DNA of 64,000 bases from Escherichia coli (GCF_044324875.1 NZ_CP172185.1), one strand, 5' to 3'. Positions 529-23,778 are shown, numbered from the stretch's first letter. The notes: a model not told the origin generated them from the sequence alone. Numbers and translations are program-made.

Positions 529-3260
529 CGCATCTGGAACTGGGTCCCGTCCCGCCTGTCGCGCAACTGGCGGGCGTGAGCCAGCATTATGGAAAAACCG
601 TTGCGCTGAACAATATCACTCTCGATATTCCGGCCCGCTGCATGGTTGGGCTGATTGGTCCGGATGGCGTCGGGAAGTCGAGTTTATTGTCATTGATTTC
701 CGGTGCTCGTGTCATTGAGCAGGGCAATGTGATCGTGCTGGGCGGCGATATGCGCGACCCGAAGCATCGTCGCGACGTTTGCCCGCGCATCGCCTGGATG
801 CCGCAGGGGCTGGGCAAAAACCTCTACCACACCTTGTCGGTGTATGAAAACGTCGATTTTTTCGCTCGCCTGTTCGGTCACGACAAAGCGGAGCGGGAAG
901 TGCGAATCAATGAGCTGCTGACCAGCACCGGCTTAGCACCGTTTCGTGATCGTCCGGCAGGGAAACTCTCCGGCGGGATGAAGCAAAAACTTGGGCTGTG
1001 CTGTGCGTTAATCCACGACCCGGAACTGTTGATTCTTGATGAGCCAACAACGGGGGTTGACCCGCTCTCCCGCGCCCAGTTCTGGGATCTGATCGACAGT
1101 ATTCGCCAGCGGCAGAGCAATATGAGCGTGCTGGTCGCCACCGCCTACATGGAAGAGGCCGAACGCTTCGACTGGCTGGTAGCGATGAATGCCGGAGAAG
1201 TGCTGGCAACCGGCAGCGCCGAAGAGCTGCGGCAGCAAACGCAAAGCGCCACGCTGGAAGAAGCATTTATAAATCTGTTACCGCAAGCGCAACGCCAGGC
1301 GCATCAGGCGGTAGTGATCCCACCATATCAACCTGAAAACGCAGAGATTGCCATCGAAGCGCGCGATCTGACCATGCGTTTTGGTTCCTTCGTTGCCGTT
1401 GATCACGTCAATTTCCGCATTCCACGCGGGGAGATTTTTGGTTTTCTTGGTTCGAACGGCTGCGGTAAATCCACCACCATGAAAATGCTTACCGGACTGT
1501 TGCCCGCCAGCGAAGGTGAGGCGTGGTTGTTCGGGCAACCGGTTGATCCAAAAGATATCGATACTCGCCGTCGGGTGGGCTATATGTCGCAGGCGTTTTC
1601 GCTCTATAACGAGCTCACCGTGCGGCAAAACCTGGAGTTACATGCCCGTTTGTTTCACATCCCGGAAGCGGAAATTCCCGCAAGAGTGGCTGAAATGAGC
1701 GAGCGTTTTAAGCTCAACGACGTTGAAGATGTTCTGCCGGAGTCATTACCGCTCGGCATTCGCCAGCGGCTTTCGCTGGCGGTGGCGGTGATTCATCGCC
1801 CGGAGATGTTAATCCTCGATGAGCCTACTTCTGGTGTCGATCCGGTGGCGAGGGATATGTTCTGGCAGTTGATGGTCGATCTCTCGCGTCAGGACAAAGT
1901 GACTATCTTCATCTCCACCCACTTTATGAACGAAGCGGAACGTTGCGACCGCATCTCCCTGATGCACGCCGGAAAAGTGCTTGCCAGCGGTACACCGCAG
2001 GAGCTGGTTGAAAAACGCGGAGCCGCCAGTCTGGAAGAGGCATTTATCGCCTATTTGCAGGAAGCGGCAGGGCAGAGCAACGAAGCCGAAGCGCCGCCTG
2101 TGGTACATGACACCACCCACGCGCCGCGTCAGGGATTTAGCCTGCGCCGTCTGTTTAGCTACAGCCGCCGCGAAGCACTGGAATTGCGCCGCGATCCGGT
2201 CCGTTCGACGCTGGCGCTGATGGGAACGGTGATCCTGATGCTGATAATGGGTTACGGCATCAGTATGGATGTGGAAAACCTGCGCTTTGCGGTGCTTGAC
2301 CGCGACCAGACCGTCAGTAGCCAGGCGTGGACGCTCAATCTCTCCGGTTCCCGTTACTTTATCGAACAACCACCGCTCACCAGTTATGACGAGCTGGATC
2401 GCCGGATGCGTGCGGGCGATATCACGGTGGCGATTGAGATTCCACCCAATTTCGGGCGCGATATCGCGCGTGGTACGCCTGTGGAACTCGGTGTCTGGAT
2501 CGACGGTGCGATGCCCAGTCGTGCCGAAACGGTAAAAGGTTACGTGCAGGCTATGCACCAGAGCTGGCTACAGGATGTGGCGAGCCGACAATCCACACCC
2601 TCCAGCCAAAGCGGGCTGATGAACATTGAGACGCGCTATCGCTATAACCCGGACGTAAAAAGCCTGCCAGCGATTGTTCCGGCGGTGATCCCGCTTCTGC
2701 TGATGATGATCCCGTCAATGCTAAGCGCCCTTAGCGTGGTGCGGGAAAAAGAGTTGGGGTCGATTATCAACCTTTACGTGACTCCCACCACCCGTAGCGA
2801 ATTTTTGCTTGGCAAACAGCTACCGTACATCGCGCTGGGGATGCTGAACTTTTTCCTGCTCTGCGGCCTGTCGGTGTTTGTGTTTGGCGTACCGCATAAA
2901 GGCAGTTTCCTGACGCTCACCCTGGCGGCGCTGCTGTATATCATCATCGCCACCGGAATGGGGCTGCTGATCTCCACCTTTATGAAAAGCCAGATTGCCG
3001 CTATTTTCGGTACGGCGATTATCACGTTGATCCCGGCGACACAGTTTTCCGGGATGATTGATCCGGTAGCTTCGCTGGAAGGTCCAGGACGCTGGATCGG
3101 CGAGGTTTACCCGACCAGTCATTTTCTGACTATCGCCCGTGGGACGTTCTCGAAAGCGCTGGATCTGACTGATTTGTGGCAACTTTTTATCCCGCTGCTG
3201 ATAGCCATACCGCTGGTGATGGGCTTAAGCATCCTGCTGCTGAAAAAACAGGAGGGATGA
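525..3260 (+). CDS. rbbA: Ribosome-associated ATPase RbbA: two ABC ATPase domains fused to an ABC-2 permease domain
   Basis: 911-aa ORF with two Walker A motifs ([18 protein letters not shown]), two ABC signature motifs ([16 protein letters not shown]) and a hydrophobic C-terminal permease domain. Confidence 0.9.
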
Positions 3261-4384
3261 TGCGCCATTTACGCAATATTTTTAATCTGGGTATCAAAGA
3301 GTTGCGCAGTCTGCTCGGTGATAAAGCGATGCTGACATTGATTGTCTTCTCGTTTACGGTGTCGGTATATTCGTCAGCGACCGTCACGCCAGGATCATTG
3401 AACCTCGCGCCGATCGCCATTGCCGATATGGATCAATCGCAGTTATCGAATCGGATCGTTAACAGCTTCTATCGTCCGTGGTTTTTGCCACCGGAGATGA
3501 TCACCGCCGATGAGATGGATGCCGGACTGGACGCCGGACGCTATACCTTCGCGATAAATATTCCGCCTAATTTTCAGCGTGATGTCCTCGCCGGACGCCA
3601 GCCAGATATTCAGGTGAACGTCGATGCCACGCGCATGAGCCAGGCATTCACTGGCAACGGTTATATCCAGAATATTATCAACGGTGAAGTGAACAGCTTT
3701 GTCGCGCGCTACCGTGATAATAGCGAACCGTTGGTATCGCTGGAAACCCGGATGCGCTTCAACCCGAACCTCGATCCCGCGTGGTTTGGCGGGGTGATGG
3801 CGATCATCAACAACATTACCATGCTGGCGATTGTGTTGACCGGATCGGCACTGATCCGCGAGCGTGAACACGGCACGGTGGAACACTTACTGGTGATGCC
3901 GATAACGCCGTTTGAGATCATGATGGCGAAGGTCTGGTCGATGGGGCTGGTGGTGCTGGTGGTGTCGGGATTATCGCTGGTACTGATGGTGAAAGGCGTG
4001 CTGGGCGTACCGATTGAAGGCTCGATCCCGCTGTTTATGCTGGGCGTGGCGCTGAGTCTGTTTGCCACCACGTCAATCGGCATTTTCATGGGGACGATAG
4101 CGCGTTCGATGCCGCAACTGGGGCTGCTGGTGATTCTGGTGCTGCTGCCGCTACAAATGCTTTCCGGTGGATCCACGCCGCGCGAAAGTATGCCGCAGAT
4201 GGTGCAGGACATTATGCTGACCATGCCGACGACACACTTTGTTAGCCTCGCGCAGGCCATTCTCTACCGTGGTGCAGGATTCGAAATCGTCTGGCCGCAG
4301 TTCCTGACACTGATGGCAATTGGCGGCGCGTTTTTCACCATCGCACTGCTGAGATTCAGGAAGACAATTGGGACAATGGCGTAA
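3257..4384 (+). CDS. yhhJ: ABC-2 family transporter permease
   Basis: ATG at 3257 overlaps the rbbA stop (ATGA) and gives 375 aa starting MMRHLRNIF; the ORF-track start at 3176 would overlap rbbA by 85 bp and is probably an artefactual extension. Multi-pass hydrophobic C-terminus. Confidence 0.85.
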
Positions 4385-4394
4385 ATACAGTTGC

Positions 4395-4427
4395 CCGATG
4401 CGTAAGCTTATAGGGTCTACGCATCGG
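4395..4427. terminator. Perfect 10-bp inverted repeat (CCGATGCGTA / TACGCATCGG) between convergent yhhJ and the aldolase gene; candidate bidirectional terminator
   Basis: Inverted repeat read directly from the sequence, 11 bp after the yhhJ stop and followed by a T-rich tract (TACAATTTATTG). Confidence 0.4.
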
Positions 4428-4474
4428 TACAATTTATTGAATTGTAGTTGTTTTACGCCGCATCCGGCGAAGAT

Positions 4475-5326
4475 TTACTTAACCAACCGATGCCCCTCAT
4501 TCATCATCAGGATTTTGCTATACACATCTTCCTCGACGGCGTTTTTTGCTGATGCCATCACTCGTGCCAGATTCGCCTCGTTGTGATTATTCACATACGC
4601 TTTGCCGACGGCGGTGATAAACGCTTTGCGCAGATCGCTGGCGATATTTACTTTAGCGACGCGATAATTAACAAAGCTGCGTAATATTTCCGGGGCGATA
4701 CCGGAGCCGCCGTGAATAACCAGCGGCACCGGGCAGACTTCGGCAATGCGCTTCAGCAGGGGGATATCGATACGCGGTATATCGTCCAGGCCATGAACGT
4801 TGCCAATAGAAACTGCCAGCATGTCGCAACCGGTGCGCTCGACAAAGGTCTTCACCTTTTCCGGTTCCGTTTTGCAATCGGCTTCGCTGACGTGATCATC
4901 TTCTTTGCCGAGAATCGCCCCCAGCTCCGCTTCAACCGGTACGCCATAGGATTTACAGAAATCGACAGCTTCCTGGGTGAAAGCGATATTCTCTTCAAAA
5001 GATAATGCGGCACCGTCAATCATGACCGAGGTAAAGCCCGCGCGCACCGCCTGTTTAACATCCTCCTGAGTTTTCCCGTGATCCAGATGAAGACTGACCG
5101 GAACATCCATTTTATCGGCGTGACGTTTCACGATTTCATAAATGTAATCGTATCCCGAGAGTTGTGCATTGGTGGGCGCAATCTGAATGAAGTTGGGTAA
5201 TCCTGAACGCTCAATGGCGTTTAAAATTGAAATCGTCGTCTCCAGATTGGTGGTATTAAACGCGCCCGCTAATACCCGTTTTTCCTGAATGCGGTCGAGC
5301 AGTATCCGTCCATTAACTAATGGCAT
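4475..5326 (-). CDS. Class II ketose-bisphosphate aldolase (FbaA/GatY/KbaY family)
   Basis: 283-aa ORF with class II aldolase hallmarks: metal-binding His-containing motifs (LHLDHG, VIHGGSG) and an N-terminus typical of tagatose/fructose bisphosphate aldolases. Confidence 0.8.
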   Translation of the reverse strand: MPLVNGRILLDRIQEKRVLAGAFNTTNLETTISILNAIERSGLPNFIQIAPTNAQLSGYDYIYEIVKRHADKMDVPVSLHLDHGKTQEDVKQAVRAGFTSVMIDGAALSFEENIAFTQEAVDFCKSYGVPVEAELGAILGKEDDHVSEADCKTEPEKVKTFVERTGCDMLAVSIGNVHGLDDIPRIDIPLLKRIAEVCPVPLVIHGGSGIAPEILRSFVNYRVAKVNIASDLRKAFITAVGKAYVNNHNEANLARVMASAKNAVEEDVYSKILMMNEGHRLVK

Positions 5327-5356
5327 TTGAAAACCTCATCTTTTAATATCAGTTAA

Positions 5357-5626
5357 TTATTCAGCTTCACCGAAGCGATCACGAAATAAGGCGGTGAGAG
5401 TTTGTATTGCCTCATTTTCATCATCGCCTTCGCAGCGTATTTCCACCGTTTTGCCGCCTTTTATTCCGGCGCGCATAATATTCATCATGCTGGTGGCATT
5501 AATATCATTACCCTCATAATGCAGCGTCACTTTACAGCTAAACTTTTTGGCGGCTTTCACCAGACACGCCGCCGGACGTGCATGCAGGCCAGTACTGTTT
5601 CTGACCTCCACGGTTTTACTCAACAT
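5357..5626 (-). CDS. HPr-family phosphocarrier protein (PTS paralogue)
   Basis: 89-aa ORF with the HPr active-site context NSTGLHARPAA (phosphorylatable His) and HPr-like size. Confidence 0.8.
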   Translation of the reverse strand: MLSKTVEVRNSTGLHARPAACLVKAAKKFSCKVTLHYEGNDINATSMMNIMRAGIKGGKTVEIRCEGDDENEAIQTLTALFRDRFGEAE

Positions 5627-7124
5627 AGTGCTCCTCCCGATGGTGTAATGGCATCACGCCTTCTTGCTGTAATTTCAACTGATACCAGCTTTTCCATTTG
5701 TGCTGATAACGCTGTAATTGATGGTATCTCGCCCGATTCGGTAACAAACGTTGGGCTATGGTAACTTGCGGCGGTGGAATATCCGGTGCGGCAGTTAATA
5801 ATGCTCCGACAGAAACCGCCTCGTTAAATGCAATTGCTTCAACCGGACGCTGTAAAATATCCGCTTTTAATTGCAGCCAAAGGGGATTTTGGGTTGCCGG
5901 ACCTATCACTTTTAACGCGCTGGTGCCAGGCACATTAAAACAGGCGAAGCAGTTGGCAAATTCCATGGTTAATCCCAGTGAGACGCTGGCAATTAACATG
6001 TCGATATTTAACGTATCGCCAAGCCCATAAAATAATCCACGAGTATGGCGATTTTTATAGGGCGAACCCGAACCGCGAAGATGTGGAATAAAGAGGGGAA
6101 TGTCATCGAGCGACCAGTTCCCCGCCAGGTAATCCGCATGTCCGCGAGTAAGTGATGCGGCGATCTCCTCATCGGTTAGCCGGAACGTGTTACGCAGCCA
6201 CTCCAGAGCGAAACCGCCCACGGGCAGCGACGCAAACAGGGTGAACTGGTTTGCAAGCGAATAACAGCCGTTTGCCAGCTTGTCACGTTTGGCCTGTTCA
6301 TCCAGCGTCGGTTGTGTATCCAGTTGCAGAATGCCTTCTGTGGTCCCCGTCGAGTTAAGGATATCGCCCGGCATCATCTGCAACGCTCGCGCACCCACCA
6401 TATGGTCATGTCCGGCCAGCGTCACGCTGACCGGTTGCGAGAACCCAAGCGTTTTGCAGAGCGACTCGCTGACCCATCCGGCGTGTTCGCCTGGCTGCAC
6501 CAATGGCGCAAATGCTGAACAGGGAACGTGTAACAACGCCGCCGCTTTCGCTGACCATTCGCCTTTGCGCACGTCAAGACACAGCGTGCGGCTGGCTAAG
6601 GTGATATCCGTGCGCTGTTCGCCGGTCAGCCGCCAGAGCAGTACTTCCGGCGCATGTAGCCAACGCAGGCCGCGGCGATTACGCAGTGGGTAATGTTCCA
6701 GCAACCAACGCATTTTGAAGGCAGAGTAATTGCTGTGCAGCGGTAACCCGCAAATGTCATAAAGTGCCGCACTGTCTGCCTCGCTAAGTGTTGCCAGATA
6801 CTCTTCACCGCGACGGTCATACCATGCCAGCATTGGCGTCAGGATCTCGCCATGCTCGTCAAGGAACACGCCTGACTCGCCAAAACTGGCAATGCTTATC
6901 CGCCTGACTGGCAGCGGCGAAGCGGCGTTCAGTTGCGCTATCGCCTGGCGGACCTCCTGCCAGAGGGCGTCGATATCGAAATCGACATTGCCCTGTGGGG
7001 AGATCTGTTTTGCCGTCACGAATTTATGCGCGCCCAACGTCGTTGCGTCCAGGCAGGAAAAGCAGGTGACTTTGCAATTGGTGGTGCCAATATCGATAAC
7101 GATAGCTGCGCTGTTATCAGGCAT
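5616..7124 (-). CDS. FGGY-family carbohydrate kinase
   Basis: 502-aa ORF; N-terminal DIGTTNCK nucleotide-binding motif and internal GHDH and GTTEG motifs typical of the glycerol/xylulose/fuculose kinase superfamily. Confidence 0.8.
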   Translation of the reverse strand: MPDNSAAIVIDIGTTNCKVTCFSCLDATTLGAHKFVTAKQISPQGNVDFDIDALWQEVRQAIAQLNAASPLPVRRISIASFGESGVFLDEHGEILTPMLAWYDRRGEEYLATLSEADSAALYDICGLPLHSNYSAFKMRWLLEHYPLRNRRGLRWLHAPEVLLWRLTGEQRTDITLASRTLCLDVRKGEWSAKAAALLHVPCSAFAPLVQPGEHAGWVSESLCKTLGFSQPVSVTLAGHDHMVGARALQMMPGDILNSTGTTEGILQLDTQPTLDEQAKRDKLANGCYSLANQFTLFASLPVGGFALEWLRNTFRLTDEEIAASLTRGHADYLAGNWSLDDIPLFIPHLRGSGSPYKNRHTRGLFYGLGDTLNIDMLIASVSLGLTMEFANCFACFNVPGTSALKVIGPATQNPLWLQLKADILQRPVEAIAFNEAVSVGALLTAAPDIPPPQVTIAQRLLPNRARYHQLQRYQHKWKSWYQLKLQQEGVMPLHHREEHYVE

Positions 7125-8475
7125 AAACCGTGCTCCGCGTCATTCGGAAAATACCATACAGTACCAGGGCGATAACCGGCACCAGACCAATGGCGATGAG
7201 ATTGCCGTTGAAGATTTCCAGCAGCCAGAAGCGGAACGGGTTACCGCCATCAAGGAAACTGGAGACCTGGCCGCTGGAGCCTTCGGCAAATTTGAAATTA
7301 ACGTCTTTCGCCATTCCGGTAATAAACGGCGCGATTTTAGTCGCAATCCACAGATCGGCAATAATCACCGGAATCGCCGCCAGAACGGTGCGGAAAATGT
7401 TGCCACGGCTGGCTAAAGCAATCATCGACGCCATTACCGCCAGGTTGGCAAGGTCGCCAAGCGGCAGGACTTCATTACCCGGAAGGACAAACGCGATAAA
7501 GACCGAGATTGGCGTCAGCAGCAGGGCGGTGGAGATAATCGCTGGGTTACCTACGGCAACGGCGATATCCAGGCCGATATAGAGATCGTCACGGTCAGGG
7601 TATTTGGCATTGAGATACTTTTTAATGGCTTCAGACAGCGGTAATAAACCTTCCATCAGAATGCGAACCATGCGTGGCAGGATGAACATCACACCGCCAA
7701 TGCTGATGCCAAGCAGCAAGACTTTTTTGAAATCGTATCCGGCAATTACGCCGAGCAGAATGCCCAGAATAGTACCAACCATCATCGGTTCGCCGAATAT
7801 GCCAAACTTTTTCTGTACGGTTTCCGGATCGATATGAATACGATTGAGGCCGGGGATATGGTCGATGATTTTGTCGACCAACAGACCGACCGGAAAGAAC
7901 ACCACCGAAGAGAGCGTCGGCAAAGAGATCCCTTCCAGGCCAAAGTATTTTTGTACCAGTGGCGCAGACCAGTCGGCGAGTTTAAGTACTACCACCGCAG
8001 CAATCGCCGCTGCCAGCAAACCAAAGAACAGGCTGCCGGTGCTGTAATAAACCAGCGTACCGGCAAGGGCAAAATGCCAGTAGTTCCACATATCTACGTC
8101 AACGGTGCGGGTTTTATTTAACGCCAGCATCGCCACGTTAATCAGAATAGTCAGGGGAATAACAAACGGGGCAATTGGCGAACCCCATGTAATAGCGGAA
8201 AGCGGCGGCCAGCCTAAATCCACCACCGGTAAATTAATTCCGGTGCGTTCAACCATCGCCTGGGCCGCTGGCCCGACATTGCTGGTAAGAATATCGAAAA
8301 TGGCATAAATACCGACAAAACCAATGCCGACCGTTAATGACGAACGTAAGGCTTTAGCGGGTTTTACTTTAAAAAAGAGAGCAAGAATAAATAACACCAA
8401 CGGCAACATTACCGTGGGACCAAATCCCAATATATATTGCACAATATTATAGAGGGTATGCGCGATATCGTTCAT
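7117..8475 (-). CDS. PTS EIIC permease, galactitol (Gat) family
   Basis: Polytopic membrane protein of about 452 aa, GatC/SgcC-like. Start chosen at the ATG at 8475, preceded by AAGAGG 7 nt upstream; the ORF-track start at 8505 lacks a ribosome-binding site. Confidence 0.8.
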   Translation of the reverse strand: MNDIAHTLYNIVQYILGFGPTVMLPLVLFILALFFKVKPAKALRSSLTVGIGFVGIYAIFDILTSNVGPAAQAMVERTGINLPVVDLGWPPLSAITWGSPIAPFVIPLTILINVAMLALNKTRTVDVDMWNYWHFALAGTLVYYSTGSLFFGLLAAAIAAVVVLKLADWSAPLVQKYFGLEGISLPTLSSVVFFPVGLLVDKIIDHIPGLNRIHIDPETVQKKFGIFGEPMMVGTILGILLGVIAGYDFKKVLLLGISIGGVMFILPRMVRILMEGLLPLSEAIKKYLNAKYPDRDDLYIGLDIAVAVGNPAIISTALLLTPISVFIAFVLPGNEVLPLGDLANLAVMASMIALASRGNIFRTVLAAIPVIIADLWIATKIAPFITGMAKDVNFKFAEGSSGQVSSFLDGGNPFRFWLLEIFNGNLIAIGLVPVIALVLYGIFRMTRSTVYA

Positions 8476-8551
8476 AATAAACCTCTTTTTCAGGCGAGAG
8501 CGCACCTCGCGTTAGCGCCTGATGGAGTGGGTTGAAATTAATTATTATTAA

Positions 8552-8833
8552 TTACTTTTTAAGGATCGAAACAATTTGCGCCAGTACTTTCTCTTCGCCA
8601 ATACCGGTAATAATCGGCAAGCCGTTAACCACCGGGACGTCGAGTTCATAAGGCACTTTAGTCGTTGAGACTACCAGTGCTACGCCGTCAGTATTTCCAG
8701 GTAAAGAGGCAACGTTGGTTTGGGAATAATTGACGTTAAGACCGTGCTCTTTACAATATTCCATGACTTTTTCTGTTACCGCCGTGGATGTGGCAATACC
8801 CGTGGCGCAGACAAATAAAATGGTTTGACTCAT
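8552..8833 (-). CDS. PTS EIIB component (galactitol-type, Cys phosphorylation site)
   Basis: 93-aa ORF beginning MSQTILFVCATGIATS, the conserved N-terminal Cys motif of GatB-type EIIB. Confidence 0.8.
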   Translation of the reverse strand: MSQTILFVCATGIATSTAVTEKVMEYCKEHGLNVNYSQTNVASLPGNTDGVALVVSTTKVPYELDVPVVNGLPIITGIGEEKVLAQIVSILKK

Positions 8834-9303
8834 ATTTCACCTCGTTCTTTCATTTTGTTTAAGATTACTGTGTGTATTTCTGTTGTTTCCATCGTAAGCA
8901 GGGCGCGCATAAAGGGCGTATCCTGAATCATCTCCATAATCCAGCCCAGGGCATTTAATTGTTTATTACTTTCACTTAAGGCGAGCAAAAAAATCACCCT
9001 GACATGTACGGGGTCAGGATCGCCGCCCATATCGGCAAACTCTACCGGTTCCGGAAGGATGCCGACGGCAATTGCATTGTGCCTGACATATTTATGGTCC
9101 GTGTGCGGAATGGCGACGCACGGTGGTTCGGTAGGCAGCCCCGTTGGGTACGTCGCCTCACGTTTCAGTACGTGATCGGCAAAATCAGGGACCACCAGCT
9201 CAGCAGCAACCAACGGTTGCGCTAACTGACGGATGATCTGTTCAACGCTTAACCCTGCCGGAAGTCGTTGAATATAATTTTCCTGAAACTGTATGCCTTG
9301 CAT
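8830..9303 (-). CDS. PTS EIIA component (fructose/mannitol-type EIIA-2 fold)
   Basis: About 157 aa; start at the ATG at 9303, preceded by GAGGAA; contains the conserved His region (AIPHTDHKYV). Stop overlaps the EIIB start. Confidence 0.75.
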   Translation of the reverse strand: MQGIQFQENYIQRLPAGLSVEQIIRQLAQPLVAAELVVPDFADHVLKREATYPTGLPTEPPCVAIPHTDHKYVRHNAIAVGILPEPVEFADMGGDPDPVHVRVIFLLALSESNKQLNALGWIMEMIQDTPFMRALLTMETTEIHTVILNKMKERGEI

Positions 9304-9327
9304 TTTATTCCTCATAAAAAAGTGTAT

Positions 9328-10074
9328 TTAACTCAATTCCCGCCGTTGCAGCACGGTGCCCAGATAATATTTATTTCCTTTTAACCAGACGTTGCCAAAC
9401 TCAACGGGTAACTCTCGGGAGAAAAAGACTAATTGCTCCAGATGCAAAACGGGTGCATCTTCACAGATATCTAAAAAATGACCGCGTTCATTACCAATTA
9501 ATCGCGCGGCATAGCGACTTTCCGAGTAACGAATTTTTCTTTTCGACAAACTTTCTATTGTTGGAAATAAATTGTGTTGATTAAAATCGATTTCCACGAT
9601 GCCGGGGCATAGCTCAATATTGATACGGTTCTCTATCAGCATCGCTTTTTCATCACCAATTGAACGTAAACGCTCAAGGTAAAGAATATCCTGACCGGGC
9701 GTTATTCTTAATTTCTCTGCCACATAACGATTAGCCGGTTCAATCCGTGACGTAATAACTTCAGTGGTAAAGTGTATTTTCTGGCTTTCCAGCGATTCCG
9801 CGAATGACAATAATCCTTCACCTAACGGATATGCCACGTTCTCTTTTTTGACAAATGTTCCCTTCCCCTGGACCTGAATCAACACGCCTTGTTTTACCAG
9901 TTGGGCGACAGCTTTTTTAACGGTTCCCCGACTCACTTCCAGCATATCCATAATCTGGTATTCCGAAGGAATGCGATCGTCTTCCACCAGATCCCCGGTA
10001 TAAATATTTTCTCTTATCCACTCCACCACTTGTTGATAGAGCGGTATTTGTGACGACTTACTCAATGATTTCAT
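9328..10074 (-). CDS. GntR/HutC-family transcriptional regulator (winged-HTH plus UTRA effector domain)
   Basis: N-terminal GntR HTH signature (IPSEYQIMDMLEVSRGTVKKAVAQLVKQGVL) and a C-terminal UTRA-like domain; ATG at 10074 is preferred over the GTG at 10083. Confidence 0.8.
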   Translation of the reverse strand: MKSLSKSSQIPLYQQVVEWIRENIYTGDLVEDDRIPSEYQIMDMLEVSRGTVKKAVAQLVKQGVLIQVQGKGTFVKKENVAYPLGEGLLSFAESLESQKIHFTTEVITSRIEPANRYVAEKLRITPGQDILYLERLRSIGDEKAMLIENRINIELCPGIVEIDFNQHNLFPTIESLSKRKIRYSESRYAARLIGNERGHFLDICEDAPVLHLEQLVFFSRELPVEFGNVWLKGNKYYLGTVLQRRELS

Positions 10075-10096
10075 GGCGCGCACCTGAACATTTACA

Positions 10097-10122
10097 GTTG
10101 TCTATGGACAATCATGGACAAC
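10097..10122. promoter_or_regulatory. Candidate operator: inverted repeat GTTGTC...GACAAC containing the palindrome TTGTC-TATG-GACAA and a direct repeat of ATGGACAA
   Basis: Read directly from the sequence, 23 bp upstream of the HutC-family regulator start; HutC-type operators are commonly GT/AC-containing palindromes. Confidence 0.3.
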
Positions 10123-10272
10123 TTCAAGCGTATAGTAGGTGAACAGGCGAAAAAGAGGATCGAAGCGTCTCACATTTTAGGGGACTAAATCGTGATCAAA
10201 AAAATGTGACGTGAGTCGATATTTGGCAGAAGTCTACTGCGCCGTCAGGAAATAACGGCGCGTTGGGAGGTG

Positions 10273-13075
<2,803 letters not shown>

Positions 13076-15659: not shown

Positions 15660-15704
15660 TGATTACCTGTTCTGGATCAATAGATGGGCAGTCGGGTGGG
15701 CGGA

Positions 15705-16292
15705 TCAGTTAACTGAATCGATCCATTGCACACTGTCGGCGGAGAGCGTAAAGGGGGTAGGGGTGCAGATCGCCAGGCTTAAATTTTCTAGCTGACAATG
15801 GCTGACTGACAGTGATGAGTGATAGGTGCTGTCTACGCTGACGATTTGCCAGGCGCTGCCGCCACGCTGTTTAACGATGGCTTCTTTGCGCGTCCAGATG
15901 CGCCAGAACATTTCCAGTTGCTGATCGGGATGCACGGCGTCCATCTCAGCGTGTTCCCCGAGGCTGAACACGGCGTTCGCCAGCCAGCGCCAGTTGGCGC
16001 GCGGGCGAATCACTTCGATATCGCAGCCGACTTCGCCTTCATCGCTCAACAGCAGGGCGATATCGTCACCGCTATGGCTTAAGTTGAACCATAGCGGCGT
16101 TTCCGGCGCGAATGCCGGTTTGCCTTGTTCGCCATAGATGATCTCCGGTAGCGGGGAAAGCGTGTGCGAAAGTAATGCACGCCCCGCCAGCCAGCGTTCG
16201 CGTCGTGGACCTTGCGGTGCTTGATCGCGTAAAGCCGGTGGCAGTGGAGCTGCGCTTAAGGTCGAAACTTTCCCCAGAACTATCCGATACAT
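15705..16292 (-). CDS. acpT: 4'-phosphopantetheinyl transferase AcpT
   Basis: 195-aa product starting MYRIVLGKVSTLS; its start lies 1 bp after the stop of the upstream ketosynthase gene, so it is the terminal gene of the cluster transcription unit. Confidence 0.85.
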   Translation of the reverse strand: MYRIVLGKVSTLSAAPLPPALRDQAPQGPRRERWLAGRALLSHTLSPLPEIIYGEQGKPAFAPETPLWFNLSHSGDDIALLLSDEGEVGCDIEVIRPRANWRWLANAVFSLGEHAEMDAVHPDQQLEMFWRIWTRKEAIVKQRGGSAWQIVSVDSTYHSSLSVSHCQLENLSLAICTPTPFTLSADSVQWIDSVN

Positions 16293-16293
16293 A

Positions 16294-17523
16294 TCAGGGC
16301 CAACGTTTAATGATGATGGATGTATTAATGCCGCCAAAGGCAAAGTTGTTACTCTGCAAAAACTCACAATCAACCTTGCGGGCTTCATGCATGATGTAAT
16401 CCAGCGCGCCACAGTTCGGGTCTGGTTTATTCAGGTTTAGCGTAGGCGCAAACCAACCTTCGCGCATCATTTGCAGACTCATCCAGGCTTCGAGCGCGCC
16501 ACAGGCACCAAGCGTATGACCAAAATAACTTTTCAGCGAGGAGAGCGGCACATTATCACCGTAAATGGTTGCTGTCGCCAGACTTTCTGCCATATCACCA
16601 CGATCGGTCGCCGTACCATGCGCCGAAATATAGCCGATATCACTTGCACTTAACCCGGCGATTTTTAACGATTTTTCCATACAATATTGCATGGTCTCAC
16701 GCTGAGGCTGGGTAATATGTGCCGCGTCGCAGTTAGTCGCAAAGCCGACGATTTCACCGTAAATGGTCGCGCCGCGCGCTTTGGCGTGCTCCAGTTCTTC
16801 AAGAATCAGCGTACCTGCGCCTTCACCAATCACCAGCCCGTCGCGGTTTTCATCGAACGGTGAAGGTGTGGTTTTCGGCGCATCATTGTGCTGGCTGGTG
16901 GCGAAAAGTGTATCAAATACCGCTGCTTCTGAAGGGCATAACTCTTCGGCACCACCAGCAACCATCACCGTTTGATAACCGTGGCGAATGGCTTCCCACG
17001 CATAACCGATCGCCTGGCTGCCGGAGGTACAGGCGCTGGAGGTCGGGATCACCCGCCCGCGCAGGCCGAAAAACAGACCGGTATTAACGGCGGTGGTGTG
17101 CGGCATCATCTGTACATAGGTGGTGCCGGTGATGTTATTGGTGTGCTTTTCCGTCAGCATGGTGGCAAATTCGCTCACCGGACCGGTACTGCCGGTCGAT
17201 GAACCGTACGCAATGCCCGTTTCGCCGCTGGTTAATATCGGATCGCCAATCAATCCTGCCTGCTCTAACGCCAGCTCGCTGGCACGGGTCGACATTTGCG
17301 ACACGCGGCCCATCGCACGGATACGCTTGCGGGTGTAGTGCTCCGGTAGCGTGAAATCATCAACAGGCGCGCCAAGCAGGGTGTGCAGACCATCGTAGAC
17401 CTGCCACTCCGGCATTTTGCGCACTGCATTCTCATACGCCAGCAGACGCGCGGAAACGTCCTGCCAGTTTTCACCAAAGGCAGTCACGCCGCCCATTCCT
17501 GTAATCACTACGCGACGTGTCAT
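16294..17523 (-). CDS. Beta-ketoacyl-ACP synthase (FabB/FabF-like; ApeR-like by gene order)
   Basis: 409-aa thiolase-fold ketosynthase with active-site Cys (TSSACTSGS) and C-terminal His residues. Confidence 0.8.
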   Translation of the reverse strand: MTRRVVITGMGGVTAFGENWQDVSARLLAYENAVRKMPEWQVYDGLHTLLGAPVDDFTLPEHYTRKRIRAMGRVSQMSTRASELALEQAGLIGDPILTSGETGIAYGSSTGSTGPVSEFATMLTEKHTNNITGTTYVQMMPHTTAVNTGLFFGLRGRVIPTSSACTSGSQAIGYAWEAIRHGYQTVMVAGGAEELCPSEAAVFDTLFATSQHNDAPKTTPSPFDENRDGLVIGEGAGTLILEELEHAKARGATIYGEIVGFATNCDAAHITQPQRETMQYCMEKSLKIAGLSASDIGYISAHGTATDRGDMAESLATATIYGDNVPLSSLKSYFGHTLGACGALEAWMSLQMMREGWFAPTLNLNKPDPNCGALDYIMHEARKVDCEFLQSNNFAFGGINTSIIIKRWP

Positions 17524-18251
17524 AACATCCCTCCGTTGATGGAAATAACCTGGCGGGTGACGTAACCCGCAATATCAGACATTAAATAGCTGGCAAGCCC
17601 GGCAACTTCTTCCGCCTGGCCCATGCGTTTCATGGGGATCATCGACATTGCCTCTTTCAGGGCGCTCTCTTCCATTTCGATCATCCCGGTATCAATAAGC
17701 CCCGGCGCGATGCAGTTGACGGTGATTTTGCGCTTCGCGAGTTCGATAGCCAGTGCTTTTGTTGCGCCGATAATTCCGGCTTTGGCAGCGCTGTAGTTCA
17801 CCTGTCCGCGATTGCCCATCACGCCGGAAACCGAGGACAGCGTGATGATGCGTCCACCCTGGCGTGTGCCGATCATCGGCATAATGCACGGCTGAATAAC
17901 GTTGTAGAAACTGTCGAGATTGGTGTGGATCACCGCATCCCAGTCGTCATCGCTTAAAGCCGGAAAAGCGGCATCGCGGGCGATCCCGGCGTTACTAACC
18001 ACGCCGTACCAGGCACCGTTTTGCGCGATTTCGTGCTCCAGCACTTCCCGACACTGTTCGCGGTTTGCGACGTCGAAACTGAGCAAACGCCCGTTACCCC
18101 CGTTGGCGACAATGGCATTTAGCGTTTCCTGAGCGCCTGTGGCGTCACGGTGATAGTGAACGCCAATATTAAAGCCGTCTGCCGCCAGTTGGCAGGCGAT
18201 GGCGCGACCAATGCCTTTGCTGGCACCAGTAACCAGAACTGAACGACTCAT
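17520..18251 (-). CDS. 3-oxoacyl-ACP reductase, SDR family (FabG-like; ApeQ-like)
   Basis: N-terminal TGASKGIGRAIA Rossmann motif and YSAAK catalytic motif. Confidence 0.85.
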   Translation of the reverse strand: MSRSVLVTGASKGIGRAIACQLAADGFNIGVHYHRDATGAQETLNAIVANGGNGRLLSFDVANREQCREVLEHEIAQNGAWYGVVSNAGIARDAAFPALSDDDWDAVIHTNLDSFYNVIQPCIMPMIGTRQGGRIITLSSVSGVMGNRGQVNYSAAKAGIIGATKALAIELAKRKITVNCIAPGLIDTGMIEMEESALKEAMSMIPMKRMGQAEEVAGLASYLMSDIAGYVTRQVISINGGML

Positions 18252-18715
18252 CAGGACGCTCCTTGTTGAAACAGGGTGGTAAGTTCTTCCGCGGTCGGCT
18301 GGAAGGTGTTAATGCGGCCCGTTGCCGTGCCGTTGTTGATGCTGCACTCAAAACTGCCGAAGCGATCGTCTTGCATCAGGAGTTTGACGGTAATGGTCAG
18401 CGTCTGGCCTGCGGGCAGAATGCCAGCGGCGCAAAGCAATTCACGTGCGCCCAGTACCATCCCTAACTCAATACTGTTTTTGCCCTGCTGGTGGCGATGC
18501 CAGCCAGACCAGACGCCGACGGTTTGCGCCATCAATTCAAGGGCAAACCAGCCAGGGAGATTGCCGTCCGGGTCGAGAAACGGTGCCAGTACGCCACTGG
18601 GCGAGACCGTTACACGGCACACCGCGCTGTCATCGCTGACGCTCACCACTTCTTCCAGCAGTAACATGGGCGCGTCGTGGGGCAGATAAGCGCCGGGGGA
18701 TAAATAGTGGCTCAC
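18251..18715 (-). CDS. Hotdog-fold beta-hydroxyacyl-ACP dehydratase (FabA/FabZ-like; ApeP-like)
   Basis: 154-aa hotdog-fold protein between the KR and KS genes; 1-bp overlap with the reductase gene. Confidence 0.7.
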   Translation of the reverse strand: MSHYLSPGAYLPHDAPMLLLEEVVSVSDDSAVCRVTVSPSGVLAPFLDPDGNLPGWFALELMAQTVGVWSGWHRHQQGKNSIELGMVLGARELLCAAGILPAGQTLTITVKLLMQDDRFGSFECSINNGTATGRINTFQPTAEELTTLFQQGAS

Positions 18716-19890
18716 GAAACCCTCCCGAGCAGAATGCTGGCGTTATTGCCGCCAAAGGCGAAGGAATTGGACAGGATCACCGGACGTGCCAGCGGCTGTG
18801 GTTGTTCGATAATGCCGCACGGTGGCAGCGTGGGATCGCGCGGCGACAGGCTGAAGTCCTGAGCGGGCAGCGGTAAATCACGCTCTAAGATCAACATACT
18901 GATTGCCGCTTCGGTAATGCCCGCTGCGCCCAGCGTGTGTCCGGTCAAATGTTTGGTGGAGCTGCACGGTACGCGTTCGCCAAACAGGGCGTTTACCAGC
19001 ATCGATTCAATCTGGTCGTTGAGTTGTGTGGCGGTGCCGTGCAGGTTGATATAGCCCACCTCATCCGGCGTAAGCTGCGCATCAGCCAGCGCCTGGTTAA
19101 TGGCGCGAATTGCGCCTTCGCCCTGTGGATGCGGGGCCGAAATATGATAAGCGTCGCTCGATTCACCGACGCCCAGCAAGGCGATGGGCTGCGGTTCGCG
19201 GGTCAACAGCATCAGCCCCGCACCTTCGCCAATGGTGATGCCCGCGCGGTCACGACCAAACGGCTGACATAAGGTTGGCGAGAGCGATTCGAGGCTGTGA
19301 AAACCGTTAATCGGCATTCGGCTCAGGGTGTCTGCACCACCCACAATGGCGGCATCGACCAGCCCCGCCTCGATAAGCCTGCGCCCGCTGATCATCGCTC
19401 TGGCACTGGAGGAGCAGGCGGTTGAAAGGGTATAAGCTGGGCCGTCGAGCGCCAGCCAGTGGCTGAGAAAACGCGACGGATCGCCGAGCTCTTGTTGTGC
19501 ATAGTGCCACGTGGTGCTCGGCTGCCCGTGGGTGCGCAGGTTAACGTGCGTGTCGCCTTCATGCAGGCCGGAGGTGCTGGTGCCAAGCACAATCGCGATG
19601 CGCTCGCGGCCATATTTCGCAATAGCGTCATCAACCTGCGGCTGGATCTGCGCCAGCGCCGCCAGCAGGATCTGATTGTTGCGCGAGCGGTGCGCAGCGA
19701 ATTTTTCCGGGATAACCGGAAGCTCGCCATCCACGCCAGCCAGGACCGCCTGCGGATGCCCCTGCAACCAGCCTGCGCGCGGGCGCATGCCGGGAGCGAC
19801 ACCGCGAGTCAGGTTGGCTGCGATATCGTCAAGGTTATTTCCCAGGGCGTTGATCATGCCGACGGCGGAAATGTAAATCATATCAGTCAC
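18712..19890 (-). CDS. Beta-ketoacyl-ACP synthase (ApeO-like elongating ketosynthase)
   Basis: 392-aa ketosynthase with active-site Cys (STACSSS) and conserved His motifs. Confidence 0.8.
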   Translation of the reverse strand: MTDMIYISAVGMINALGNNLDDIAANLTRGVAPGMRPRAGWLQGHPQAVLAGVDGELPVIPEKFAAHRSRNNQILLAALAQIQPQVDDAIAKYGRERIAIVLGTSTSGLHEGDTHVNLRTHGQPSTTWHYAQQELGDPSRFLSHWLALDGPAYTLSTACSSSARAMISGRRLIEAGLVDAAIVGGADTLSRMPINGFHSLESLSPTLCQPFGRDRAGITIGEGAGLMLLTREPQPIALLGVGESSDAYHISAPHPQGEGAIRAINQALADAQLTPDEVGYINLHGTATQLNDQIESMLVNALFGERVPCSSTKHLTGHTLGAAGITEAAISMLILERDLPLPAQDFSLSPRDPTLPPCGIIEQPQPLARPVILSNSFAFGGNNASILLGRVS

Positions 19891-20467
19891 CTAAATATTG
19901 AATGGTGATGTGGTATTTAAAGACATGCTGTTCAATGCTGATTGGCACGCGTTTTCCCTGGCGATTCAGATAGGTGATTTCCGTGACCAGTTTGCCGCTG
20001 GCGTTACGCAGTTCGCGTTTGTCACCGTTGTCGCGAAGCGTCCATCCAGCGGGGAGTTGCGGTTGCCAGGCGCTAATCGGCCAGTGGCTAAGCATCACGT
20101 CAGCCAGCACCTGACTTGCGGGCGGCAACTGTGGGACGACGATGGATTGCTCGGCGCGTAGCCCTTGCGCATCGTAGGTCACCAGAAACAGACGAATGCC
20201 GACCGACGACAGCCCGGCAAGGGTGATTTTCTGGTCGTCGGCGTTAAGCATCACTAGCAGAGACTGGGTTTTGCCGTTGAAGCTGCCGCTCAATAGTTGC
20301 TGGGAATTAACGGCGGGCGAAATCCCTGGTGCCGGCAGCGTGATGCGCGTGCCAGGTTGCAGCCACGCCTGTGGGCGACCTTCCTGTTCCGGTTGCGAGT
20401 GGCTACAGCCGGTGAGGATAAGCGTAGCGGTCAGGGCGAACGCTCGCCAGAATGTGGGTTTGATCAT
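19883..20467 (-). CDS. Lipoprotein of the cluster export module (ApeN-like)
   Basis: Signal peptide with lipobox LTGC near the N-terminus; overlaps both flanking genes. Confidence 0.65.
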   Translation of the reverse strand: MIKPTFWRAFALTATLILTGCSHSQPEQEGRPQAWLQPGTRITLPAPGISPAVNSQQLLSGSFNGKTQSLLVMLNADDQKITLAGLSSVGIRLFLVTYDAQGLRAEQSIVVPQLPPASQVLADVMLSHWPISAWQPQLPAGWTLRDNGDKRELRNASGKLVTEITYLNRQGKRVPISIEQHVFKYHITIQYLGD

Positions 20468-22782
20468 TTTTTTGTTCTCTTTTTATCGGGCATAGCCAGC
20501 GGCGAAAGCAGGAAGGCGGTGAAAATACCGCTCACCAACACAATGCCAAAACTGCTGATGGCCTGGGTGGCGCTGAATACCAGCATTCCCAGCGCCAGCA
20601 AGGTGGTGAGCATTGCCAGCGTGATCGCCAGTAGGGAAGTTAACGGTGTACCGCGCGGATTACTGAAAAACAGCGTGTAATTGATGCCGATGCCAAGCAC
20701 CAGCACCAGCGCCAGTAGCGAAAAGAGATTCACCGCCTGCCCGCTCATCGCCAGCACTGCCAGACCGCAGCCCAGCGAAAGTACCGAAGGCACCAGGCTG
20801 ATAAGCCCTTTGCGCCAGCCGAGGCGGGCCACTGCGCCGCAGGCAATCACCGCCAGCGCCACCAGCAACAAACCGGTTAAGACGTAGCGGTAAAGTGCGA
20901 ACAACTCATCAAAGGTGCTTTTGCGATCAACCCAGGCAATGCCGCCAGGGTAATCGCTGGCGATTTCCTGCAACAACGCGCTACTTTTAACCCCTTCAAC
21001 CGGCACCAGTACGCCGCTTTCGCCGTTTTTCAGCGTCAGCCACAGCAGACGCCAGCCTTCACTGGCGGGGCTTGCCAGCCATTCATCGACCTTCACTGGC
21101 ATGGCGTTGAGATCCGGATTCACTGCCGCCAGCCCGGCATTTTGCAGTGCTTTTGTTACTGTCGGGGCAGCCGTTTTCAGCAGATGTAAATCTTCCTCCT
21201 GCCGCGCCAGGGAGTTCAGCGGAATGGTGCGGTAGTTGCTGATAAGCCCCTCTTTTTTCGCATTCTCCAGCGAGGCGGTAAATTTCTCCAGCCGCCGCAA
21301 TGTTTGCTGTGGAGAGTCGCCGTAAACTACAAACCATTTTTGATCGACGCTTTGTCCGGTCAGGGCGGTAATGGCTTTCTCTTGGGCCAGAATATGCTGC
21401 GGTAGCGCCTGTAACTGCGAGATATCGTCGTCGACGCGCAGCATTGACATCCCCGCCAGCGAAAACAGCGCCAGCGCGACGGGCAGACCCAGCGACAGTT
21501 TTTTATTACGCCGCCACGCAGCCAGCCAGCGCAGCATCAGCGCCATCGCCGGAACCGGACGCACCGGCAGGCCACGGCACAGCCACGGATGCCAGAACAG
21601 GACGGTCAGACAGGAGGCGCTCAACCCGACGGCGGCAAAAATCGCCATCTGGCGAATGCCGGGGAAGGGGGCGAGCATCATAATCAGATACGCCGCCACG
21701 GTGGTGAGCAGCGCCAGCAGCAGGGCATTGCGCACTTTCGCCAGGCTTTGCCACGGCGAAACGTCATTGCCGTGCACCATCCGCTCGGTGAGGTAATAGA
21801 GCGTGTAGTCAGCGGAAATGCCGATAACGCTCATGCTCATCACCAGCGTCATCAGGTGTAATTCGCCGAAAATCAACAAGGTGGCGACCGTTCCCGCCAG
21901 CGCGCCGATGCCGATGGAAATCACGCAAAGCAGCAATGGGCGTAAAGAGCGGAACACCGCCACAATCAGTAATATCACCCCCAGCAGCGTTGCCACGCCC
22001 AGGTTGGAGATATCCTGCTTCGCCTGTTGGCTGGCGTAATCGCTGTAAAACACCGTGCCGCGCGAGAGCAACTGCGCCTGCGGGTAACGCGTTTTCAGAT
22101 CCTTTTCCAGCGTATTCAGGGTCGTGATGAGCTGGTGGGTTTGCTGCATATCAAACGACGATCCCGCCAGTTCGCCGTGCAGCAGATACCAGTAGTTGCC
22201 CTGGGGATCCTGCGTCACCAGCCAGCCGTCCATCAGCCGCAAACGCTGGCCGTTTTTCGCCATCGCCAGCTGCGAGCCACGCATTAACATCAGCGGATCG
22301 TTTTGCAGCTCCTTACCGCTTACCCCGGAGAACGCAGAATAAAGCTGGGAGAGGATCCACTGCGCCTGCGCTTCGCCGCCGTTTTGCAGGCGCGCGCGGG
22401 TGTCGGGGTCAACCAGGCCGTTGCGGTGCTGCCAGAAAAACGCTCCCCACGCCTGCTGGCTGGCGGCATCCATTGGCCCTTTAACGTCGCCGAGCGCAGC
22501 GGATTTTTGCAGCAGCGTCAGCCACTCCTGAGCCACCCTGGGATTAGCCTCTTTACCGGGGCTGACCAGCCACACCAGTTGGCGGTCCAGACGCTGCATA
22601 AAGCCGTCATTCAGCGCTGGAGGAATATCGCCCATCGCCTGTTTGGGTAACATAGCCAGCACGCTACTGTTCAGTCGTGATTGCGGCAACAGGATCAGCA
22701 ACGCCGCCGCCATGACCAGGCAGACGATCCCCCATAACAGCGCCGGGCGTTTACTGGGCGGCAAAACGTTGGCGTTCGTCAT
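20464..22782 (-). CDS. MMPL/RND-superfamily exporter (ApeM-like)
   Basis: 772-aa protein with two blocks of transmembrane helices separated by large soluble domains, typical of MMPL-type lipid exporters. Confidence 0.8.
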   Translation of the reverse strand: MTNANVLPPSKRPALLWGIVCLVMAAALLILLPQSRLNSSVLAMLPKQAMGDIPPALNDGFMQRLDRQLVWLVSPGKEANPRVAQEWLTLLQKSAALGDVKGPMDAASQQAWGAFFWQHRNGLVDPDTRARLQNGGEAQAQWILSQLYSAFSGVSGKELQNDPLMLMRGSQLAMAKNGQRLRLMDGWLVTQDPQGNYWYLLHGELAGSSFDMQQTHQLITTLNTLEKDLKTRYPQAQLLSRGTVFYSDYASQQAKQDISNLGVATLLGVILLIVAVFRSLRPLLLCVISIGIGALAGTVATLLIFGELHLMTLVMSMSVIGISADYTLYYLTERMVHGNDVSPWQSLAKVRNALLLALLTTVAAYLIMMLAPFPGIRQMAIFAAVGLSASCLTVLFWHPWLCRGLPVRPVPAMALMLRWLAAWRRNKKLSLGLPVALALFSLAGMSMLRVDDDISQLQALPQHILAQEKAITALTGQSVDQKWFVVYGDSPQQTLRRLEKFTASLENAKKEGLISNYRTIPLNSLARQEEDLHLLKTAAPTVTKALQNAGLAAVNPDLNAMPVKVDEWLASPASEGWRLLWLTLKNGESGVLVPVEGVKSSALLQEIASDYPGGIAWVDRKSTFDELFALYRYVLTGLLLVALAVIACGAVARLGWRKGLISLVPSVLSLGCGLAVLAMSGQAVNLFSLLALVLVLGIGINYTLFFSNPRGTPLTSLLAITLAMLTTLLALGMLVFSATQAISSFGIVLVSGIFTAFLLSPLAMPDKKRTKK

Positions 22783-23356: not shown

Positions 23357-23775
23357 GGTTTGACTCCCATGCGTTCAAACAAAATATCGGGGCTGACAAA
23401 GCACAGTTCGCGGCTTTGCTCGTCGACCGCGACCTGAATGGTGTATCCGGTGGTGGCGCGTTTGCCCGTTTCGGCATCGAAAATCTGATAGCCAATCCGC
23501 AGACGGTTTTCGAACTCTTCGATATGTGCACGCACGCGGATGCGTTGCTCAAAGGTGAGGGCGTGGCGATATTTCACCCGCGCATCGACCACTGGCCACA
23601 AATAACCGGACTCTTTCATCTGCCGATAGCCGTAATTGAACTGGTTGAGCAGCGCCTCGCGGGCCACTTCAAAGTAGCGAAAATAGTTACCGTGCCAGGC
23701 CACGCCCATCATATCGACGTCGTGAAAGGGAATGGTCAGCTCGACTTCAGCGGTAAATCGGGGATCGTTAAGCAC
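23353..23775 (-). CDS. Hotdog-fold acyl-CoA/acyl-ACP thioesterase (4HBT-like; ApeK-like)
   Basis: 140-aa protein resembling YbgC/4-hydroxybenzoyl-CoA thioesterase family members. Confidence 0.7.
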   Translation of the reverse strand: MLNDPRFTAEVELTIPFHDVDMMGVAWHGNYFRYFEVAREALLNQFNYGYRQMKESGYLWPVVDARVKYRHALTFEQRIRVRAHIEEFENRLRIGYQIFDAETGKRATTGYTIQVAVDEQSRELCFVSPDILFERMGVKP

Positions 23776-23778
23776 CCT

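Follow-up and report, generated by a model that had tools for sequence, protein, structure and literature searches.

An HPr-family phosphocarrier gene, embedded in a seven-gene carbohydrate operon of Escherichia coli, probably encodes a functional, island-dedicated carrier that moves phosphoryl groups from enzyme I (EI) to the EIIA encoded in the same operon, and would thereby make a presumably horizontally acquired phosphotransferase system (PTS) self-sufficient. Based on comparisons of sequences, gene neighborhoods and a structural model, we put the probability of this reading at about 0.7. The gene lies at positions 5357-5626, on the minus strand, of a 64,000-nucleotide stretch of E. coli DNA (GCF_044324875.1 NZ_CP172185.1), which is referred to here as the window. 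The distribution of the HPr gene among homologous clusters and the conservation of its active site are presented below along with the alternative roles that the gene could have.

Identification and annotation of the embedded HPr gene

The open reading frame begins with an ATG at 5626-5624 on the minus strand and has 89 codons, with the product MLSKTVEVRNSTGLHARPAACLVKAAKKFSCKVTLHYEGNDINATSMMNIMRAGIKGGKTVEIRCEGDDENEAIQTLTALFRDRFGEAE. This protein matched the Pfam PTS-HPr family PF00381 over residues 3-82 (E=2.2e-30; 105 bits against a cutoff of 23) and the NCBIfam model TIGR01003 (105.9 bits against a cutoff of 47.9), and the assignment of 5357-5626 to the HPr family is far beyond chance. A sequence-only reading of this DNA had placed an HPr-family gene between a kinase gene and an aldolase gene, with no mention of the strand, and had given its overlap with the kinase gene as 11 bp. 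Both statements were confirmed, as the kinase TAA stop occupies 5618-5616 and the overlap with the HPr start codon is exactly 11 bp (ATGTTGAGTAA). A GGAGG motif at 5637-5633 precedes the HPr ATG by 6 nt. In RefSeq, the identical reading frame of E. coli 042 is named 'HPr family phosphocarrier protein' (WP_000949583.1), and the counterpart in O157 Sakai, ECs_4354, is annotated as 'phosphotransferase system HPr enzyme'. The gene is thus real, intact and already correctly annotated.

The protein scored below the cutoffs of all the equivalog models for named HPr paralogues that were compared. These included PtsH (NF008104; 56.5 bits against 153), NPr/PtsO (NF008146; 51.9 bits against 119), the fused-HPr models of FruB (64.1 bits against 302) and DhaM (52.7 bits against 520), and the Firmicute HPr equivalog models of NCBIfam (80 against 110 bits). 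Additionally, the gene neighbors the kinase and aldolase genes with no ptsHI-crr context, neither rpoN nor ptsN is nearby, and the reading frame is free-standing. Given these scores, the embedded protein is a member of the HPr family that is none of the named paralogues.

Organization of the operon and its island

Seven genes on the same strand lie between yhhJ and nikR, in the order GntR regulator, EIIA, EIIB, EIIC of the Gat family, FGGY kinase, HPr and class II aldolase, with the HPr gene in sixth place. The successive intergenic gaps and overlaps are +12, -4, +46, -8, -11 and +30 bp, and the set is one operon by any ordinary criterion. The features of the island are as follows, in the direction of transcription:

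10096-10123, no strand: candidate operator a short distance 5' of the regulator start: an inverted repeat with the palindrome TTGTCCATAGACAA at 10098-10111
9328-10083, minus: GntR/HutC-type regulator with GntR HTH and UTRA domains (PF00392, PF07702), first gene; RefSeq start at 10074
8830-9315, minus: PTS EIIA of the PTS_EIIA_2 class (PF00359, E=1.8e-32), presumed phosphoryl acceptor from HPr
8552-8833, minus: galactitol-type PTS EIIB (PF02302, NF007643), overlapping the EIIA gene by 4 bp
7117-8505, minus: PTS EIIC of the Gat family (PF03611, E=2.7e-91); RefSeq start at 8475
5616-7124, minus: FGGY-family carbohydrate kinase (PF00370, PF02782), overlapping the EIIC gene by 8 bp and the HPr gene by 11 bp
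5633-5637, minus: Shine-Dalgarno sequence GGAGG of the HPr gene, inside the 3' end of the kinase gene, read from the sequence
5357-5626, minus: HPr-family phosphocarrier paralogue of 89 aa, identified by Pfam, NCBIfam, fold model and alignment
4475-5326, minus: class II aldolase, FBA/GatY-type (PF01116, E=1.2e-81), last gene of the operon, 30 bp past HPr
4384-4438, no strand: REP-like inverted repeat marking the island boundary, within the 90 bp that separate the convergent yhhJ and aldolase genes

The catalytic residues expected of a working phosphoryl chain are in place, with the active-site His71 of EIIA (motif VAIPH) and Cys9 of EIIB each invariant in 26/26 homologues, and the EIIC is the most conserved protein of the cluster. 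The kinase motifs DxGTTNxK, GHDHM and IGPxxxN are conserved among homologues, and the kinase scored under every NCBIfam equivalog cutoff. The aldolase scored 556.7 bits with the NCBIfam model NF005943, whose cutoff is 364.

In the nikR-GntR intergenic region, the perfect palindrome TTGTCCATAGACAA is a plausible, putative autoregulatory operator, and a second inverted repeat with 20-nt arms is found at 10159-10220. At the other end of the island, the REP-like repeat at 4384-4438 is a candidate bidirectional terminator. In a scan for promoters and terminators, the counts did not exceed those of shuffled sequence and the minus strand gave no useful candidate, and no Rfam RNA family matched within 3000-12000. 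Most island genes have a GC content of 42-50% (GntR 42%, EIIB 45%), the kinase gene has 54% with a GC3 of 0.58, and the flanking core genes have 54-59%; base composition inside the island (4475-10083) is accordingly mosaic.

Some differences and neighbors around the island were also observed. In O157 Sakai, a hicAB toxin-antitoxin pair separates the aldolase gene from yhhJ (L029, 19578-20209), where the window has only the 90-bp spacer. On the minus strand at about 15700-25500, adjoining nikA, synteny with Sakai ECs4333-4342 points to acpT and an accessory fab-like cluster containing two fabF copies, fabG, a dehydratase, an acyltransferase and a thioesterase.

Occurrence of the HPr gene in homologous clusters

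A species-level genome scan with the kinase found 18 Enterobacterales loci which, with the Salmonella locus, made 19 orthologous clusters. The HPr gene was present in 21/21 Enterobacterales clusters, that is, in the 19 orthologous clusters and two paralogous ones, despite three gene orders (R, regulator; A, B and C, the EII genes; K, kinase; Ald, aldolase):

Type A, R-A-B-C-K-HPr-Ald: Escherichia and Citrobacter; HPr overlaps the kinase gene by 11 bp
Type B, R-Ald-A-B-C-K-HPr: Enterobacter cancerogenus and a Pantoea; HPr overlaps the kinase gene by 32 bp
Type C, R-A-B-C-K-Ald-HPr: Salmonella, Cedecea, Rahnella, Phytobacter, Trabulsiella, Izhakiella and others; HPr lies 9-27 bp after the aldolase gene

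The two paralogous clusters, in Pantoea rwandensis and Erwinia mallotivora, also have HPr after the aldolase gene; their kinases are 37-38% identical to that of the window, and they include added Zn-dehydrogenases. These clusters (L024, 5706-14596; L025, 5766-13471) are split into an EIIA-EIIB-EIIC-kinase-Zn-ADH part and a GntR-aldolase-HPr-SurE part. Compared with the window, their GntR and aldolase proteins are 67-82% identical, their HPrs 43-47%, and their EII proteins and kinase 25-57%, a spread of identities that suggests modular exchange.

Six loci were sampled from the next-closest kinase homologues (35-40% identity), in Enterococcus, Pectinatus, Listeria immobilis, Mitsuokella, Clostridium and one further contig. 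All six of these Firmicute/Negativicute loci carried the cassette of regulator (PRD-type in Pectinatus), aldolase, EIIA, EIIB, EIIC and kinase, and in none of the six was an HPr gene found within 8 kb by Pfam calls and tblastn. By tblastn, identities to the window proteins were 71-77% for EIIC, 59-72% for EIIB, 50-69% for the aldolase, 54-57% for GntR, 40-45% for EIIA (34-44% in global alignment) and 36-39% for the kinase (35-39% in global alignment). At these identities, the Enterobacterales and the Firmicute/Negativicute clusters are clearly homologous. Additionally, appending the HPr gene to the commonest Firmicute gene order gives exactly type B. The 21-versus-6 pattern may represent few independent events, as all the enterobacterial clusters may go back to one or two acquisitions. 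This contrast between Firmicutes and Enterobacterales is a useful comparative observation that was not found in the literature searched.

Embedded HPrs of the same subfamily were also found in other islands that encode a Gat-family PTS. One of these (L031) has DhaK-DhaL instead of the FGGY kinase, and another (L032, E. marmotae-type) has no kinase at all; their EII proteins are 24-42% and their HPrs 41-49% identical to those of the window. Thus, the constant partners of this HPr subfamily are the Gat-family EIIABC and an aldolase, and not the FGGY kinase. In both islands (L031, 110-7267; L032, 4014-10475) the embedded HPr occurs with a FucA-type (PF00596) aldolase and a PRD regulator. DhaK-DhaL stands directly before HPr in L031, and the L032 island sits between serA and zapA and has an Fe-alcohol dehydrogenase.

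Active site, relatives and predicted fold of the embedded HPr

The phosphorylatable histidine, whose presence the sequence-only reading had left to be checked in an alignment, is His15 in the motif NSTGLHARPAA (CAT codon at 5584-5582), and it is kept in 22/22 embedded HPrs extracted from clusters. Arg17 and Ser46 are also readable in the protein. An alignment of ten HPr sequences gave the N10-A20 loop as invariant, the individual invariant positions being N10-S11-T12-G13, H15-A16-R17-P18-A19-A20, L22, K24, K27 and M48, and further A53, G54, K56, G67, D69, E70, F81 and F85-G86-E87. These residues map to the active-site loop and to the face of helix 1 and helix 2 which, from the known HPr complexes, we take to be the one that contacts EI and EIIA.

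Ser46 is present in the type A and type B HPrs and is replaced by Gly in the type C orthologues and in the paralogues, and thus the regulatory Ser46 site of Firmicute HPr is not a conserved feature of embedded HPrs. To our knowledge, E. coli has no HprK/P, and the change to Gly in type C would fit a role through His15 only in hosts that lack this enzyme.

The embedded HPr is 47% identical to the HPr of T. tengcongensis, 42-44% to Bacillus-type HPr, 35% to E. coli PtsH and 34% to NPr, with three Firmicute HPrs compared and all reference sequences checked against the PDB. In a PDB sequence search, all Firmicute HPr/Crh entries ranked above E. coli HPr. This affinity to Firmicute HPr is clear for the E. 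coli allele and slight for the orthologues of types B and C. Among the non-island relatives examined, the nearest (P0300, 47%) is in a fruK-fruA-ptsH-ptsI locus, as for a general HPr. A neighbor-joining tree of 130 HPrs, in which the island HPrs fell close together and away from PtsH and NPr, was star-like and poorly resolved, and no weight is given to it here; poor resolution of HPr trees has been noted before (PMC2405797).

An AlphaFold model, with ten orthologues as input, had a pLDDT of 92.1 and a beta-alpha-beta-beta-alpha-beta-alpha topology (strands 2-7, 32-37, 40-43 and 60-66; helices 16-26, 47-53 and 70-82). Its best Foldseek match was the T. tengcongensis HPr structure 3LE3, with a TM score of 0.94 and an rmsd of 1.0 Å. 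The embedded HPr is thus predicted to adopt the open-faced beta-sandwich fold of HPr.

Distribution of the island in E. coli and Salmonella

Over 6 kb, the window matches strain BEC1-S17-ESBL-09 at 100% identity and strain 042 at 99.9%. In E. coli, 1635 of 5426 complete genomes (about 30%) matched the HPr gene and were counted as carrying the island, always on the chromosome. Carriers include O157:H7, O145 and the enteroaggregative strain 042, and in O157 Sakai the island corresponds to ECs4349-4355. A search of the plasmid collection PLSDB with the kinase gave no evidence of plasmid carriage, as the two matches were mislabelled chromosomes. These records, NZ_CP134663.1 and NZ_CP141089.1, are 4.9-Mb E. 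coli chromosomes filed as plasmids.

The orthologous island of Salmonella enterica, STM3779-STM3785, adjoins uhp. It has been described as an AT-rich, H-NS-repressed island that encodes a complete PTS of unknown specificity (PMC3604774), has been placed under 'unknown sugars' (PMC11000858), and has been singled out as a gain that defines Salmonella enterica subspecies I. Full-text literature searches turned up no functional study of the island; beyond a general paper on PTS evolution (PMC2405797), the mentions were genomic or transcriptomic only.

In a few places the island shows signs of decay. His15 is missing from some truncated or frameshifted HPr alleles of E. coli (P0044, P0045, P0018 and P0056), whose protein calls are 57 aa long and either cut short at the N terminus or frameshifted. 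In E. albertii NBRC 107761 (L008, 1034-1336), the HPr reading frame runs into aldolase residues 8-28, which points to a gene-fusing deletion, and the kinase of Enterobacter sp. CC120223-11 (L011) has an internal stop.

Proposed role of the embedded HPr and alternatives

In the proposed mechanism, host enzyme I would phosphorylate the embedded HPr at His15. The island encodes no EI, and we therefore infer that the host EI must be the donor. The phosphoryl group would then pass from HPr to His71 of the island EIIA, from EIIA to Cys9 of EIIB, and finally to the incoming sugar at the Gat-family EIIC, after which the FGGY kinase and the class II aldolase would turn the sugar-phosphate into triose phosphates. 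The cassette also occurs in Firmicutes, where it would run on the general HPr, and in Enterobacterales it always comes with its own HPr, which is closer to the Firmicute HPrs compared than to that of the host. A private HPr would free the acquired EII from the resident PtsH, which is 35% identical, and the island EIIA would be expected to prefer the embedded HPr over PtsH; this is perhaps the simplest account of the presence/absence pattern.

With respect to the catabolic route, no isomerase or dehydrogenase gene is present in the seven-gene cluster, which suggests a ketose as the substrate. The kinase may phosphorylate the PTS product a second time, with the aldolase cleaving the resulting bisphosphate. 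Alternatively, the aldolase may cleave a ketose-1-phosphate, with the FGGY kinase phosphorylating the released aldehyde. The second route is tentatively favored by analogy, because the sister islands pair their aldolase with DhaKL or an Fe-alcohol dehydrogenase, both of which act on a cleavage product that carries no phosphate.

It is not obvious why a private HPr would be needed, since the Gat-family systems of K-12, GatABC and SgcABC, work with the general HPr. The embedded gene may therefore be a redundant passenger, intact and dispensable, with PtsH serving the EIIA equally well and the gene being kept by linkage or by a small dosage benefit. In agreement with such a role, HPr evolves faster than any other protein of the cluster, its mean pairwise distance being 0.378 (kinase 0.31, EIIA 0.30, EIIC 0.079), and in the closest pair its dN/dS of 0.15 is the highest among the seven cluster genes; the existence of truncated and frameshifted alleles, along with the use of PtsH by the K-12 systems, points the same way. 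Against it, the dN/dS of the HPr gene is 0.05-0.15 where dS is unsaturated, which is well below 1 and indicates purifying selection, the active site and the interaction face are invariant, the gene was kept in all 21 enterobacterial clusters through at least three gene-order rearrangements, and the match covered at least 80% of the gene length in all 1635 E. coli genomes carrying the island. Weighing these observations, we consider a mere passenger unlikely. The description of this HPr as 'dedicated' in the sequence-only reading thus holds up well, with the gene present in every enterobacterial version of the cluster, under purifying selection, and below the cutoffs for general HPr, NPr, FPr and DhaM. 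The correlation between the evolutionary rates of HPr and EIIA was weak in a mirror-tree analysis (partial r 0.32) and not stronger than that between HPr and the aldolase.

A second alternative is that HPr regulates, or gives phosphate to, the translationally coupled FGGY kinase. Models for this kind of control are the activation of Firmicute glycerol kinase by HPr(His~P) and the relay from DhaM to DhaL. The 11-bp overlap and the Shine-Dalgarno sequence inside the kinase gene are found in all type A loci, and the overlap is 32 bp in type B; the related HPr of L031 follows DhaK-DhaL directly. Glycerol kinases are the best PDB relatives of the kinase, among them that of Enterococcus casseliflavus, an enzyme under HPr control. 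Additionally, 18/19 HPr-carrying clusters and 0/6 Firmicute clusters have His360 in the kinase (KNRHTRG), and kinase and EIIA are fast-evolving, co-varying proteins of the cluster (partial r 0.75). The His360 pattern, however, involves very few independent lineages, and the ATP-kinase motifs are intact in all homologues. Moreover, in the paralogous clusters as in type C the gene ahead of HPr is that of the aldolase and not of the kinase, an HPr of the same subfamily is found in the kinase-less island L032, and the Firmicute clusters have the kinase with no private HPr. Altogether, control of the kinase by HPr seems quite improbable. A GlpK-type, HPr-activated control in particular was considered and rejected, as His232 in the Y-H-F loop of the E. 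casseliflavus enzyme aligns with a Lys in the island kinase ('slcKtlgf', compared with 'syRfyg' in the H232R entry 3H3N). Another histidine of the kinase, His157, was found only in the orthologous enterobacterial kinases.

A broader and equally doubtful proposal is that the embedded HPrs form a portable coupling-module subfamily, which would also phosphorylate or gate the triose/ketose kinase step, for example at His360. The hallmarks of such a module would be the NSTGLHARPAA loop and a C-terminal G-F-G-E motif, and it would accompany several unrelated Enterobacterales islands that combine a Gat-family PTS with an aldolase, namely that of the window, the Pantoea/Erwinia polyol variant, the DhaKL variant and the E. 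marmotae Fe-ADH variant. If true, a Gram-negative bacterium would have an FGGY kinase under PEP-dependent control.

Very improbable is a signalling paralogue of the NPr/Crh kind, which would report transport activity to the regulator or to global metabolism rather than drive transport, given the score of 51.9 bits against the NPr cutoff of 119 with no rpoN/ptsN context, an island regulator of the GntR/UTRA type (a class for which we know of no control by HPr), a Ser46 (the regulatory site of Crh and HPr) that is not conserved, and a complete EIIA-EIIB-EIIC chain in the same operon; in its favor are the automatic naming of several orthologues as 'Phosphocarrier protein NPr' in UniRef, the existence of purely regulatory HPr paralogues (PMC2405797), and the binding of HPr to the non-PTS partners glycogen phosphorylase, Rsd and FruR in PDB entries.

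With the island-dedicated EI-to-EIIA carrier as the preferred reading, some practical consequences follow for work on these loci. The island is a carbohydrate-utilisation locus present in about 30% of the complete genomes of E. coli and in Salmonella enterica subspecies I, and its heterologous expression or reconstitution should include the HPr gene. The pair of HPr-less Firmicute clusters and HPr-carrying enterobacterial clusters also offers a testable example of how an acquired PTS might be fitted to the phosphorelay of its host.

Comparison with known systems

As a single gene, the embedded HPr is an expected kind of object that is already correctly annotated, and the island is a known accessory PTS. 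An operon-embedded, sugar-specific HPr is likewise of a known kind, for which FPr, the HPr-like domain of FruB in the fruBKA operon of E. coli and Salmonella, is the classic example of a sugar-specific carrier within its own EII operon. The TagH protein (EIIA/HPr) of the D-tagatose PTS of Klebsiella and Bacillus licheniformis (PMC10101011) is analogous to FPr. In common with these, the embedded HPr is encoded next to a sugar or sugar-phosphate kinase in a pathway with a class II aldolase, and general EI would be its phosphate donor. It differs from both in being a free-standing protein of 89 aa with no EIIA fusion (64 bits against the FruB cutoff of 302), and from the FPr system in that the island transporter belongs to the Gat family and not the Fru family, and the kinase to the FGGY and not the PfkB family.

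The embedded HPr shares its fold and its His15/Arg17 active site with E. coli PtsH and is of similar length, and EI is presumably the donor for both. The two proteins share only 35% identity, however, and the embedded HPr is accessory (30% of genomes) and outside the ptsHI-crr context. The general HPrs of Firmicutes (T. tengcongensis 3LE1 and Bacillus) are the closest solved relatives (79.7 bits, 47% identity, TM 0.94), with Ser46 and a C-terminal F/L-G-E motif common to both, whereas the embedded HPr resides in a catabolic island of a Gram-negative host and many of its orthologues have lost Ser46. NPr (PtsO) and Crh are, like it, small, free-standing HPr paralogues that exist alongside a general HPr, but the embedded HPr is outside the rpoN operon and under the NPr cutoff, and unlike Crh it keeps His15. 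Finally, Salmonella STM3779 and O157 ECs4354 represent the same gene in the same cluster; the former, of type C, differs from the window's HPr in its place after the aldolase gene, in being about 44% identical, and in its Gly46.
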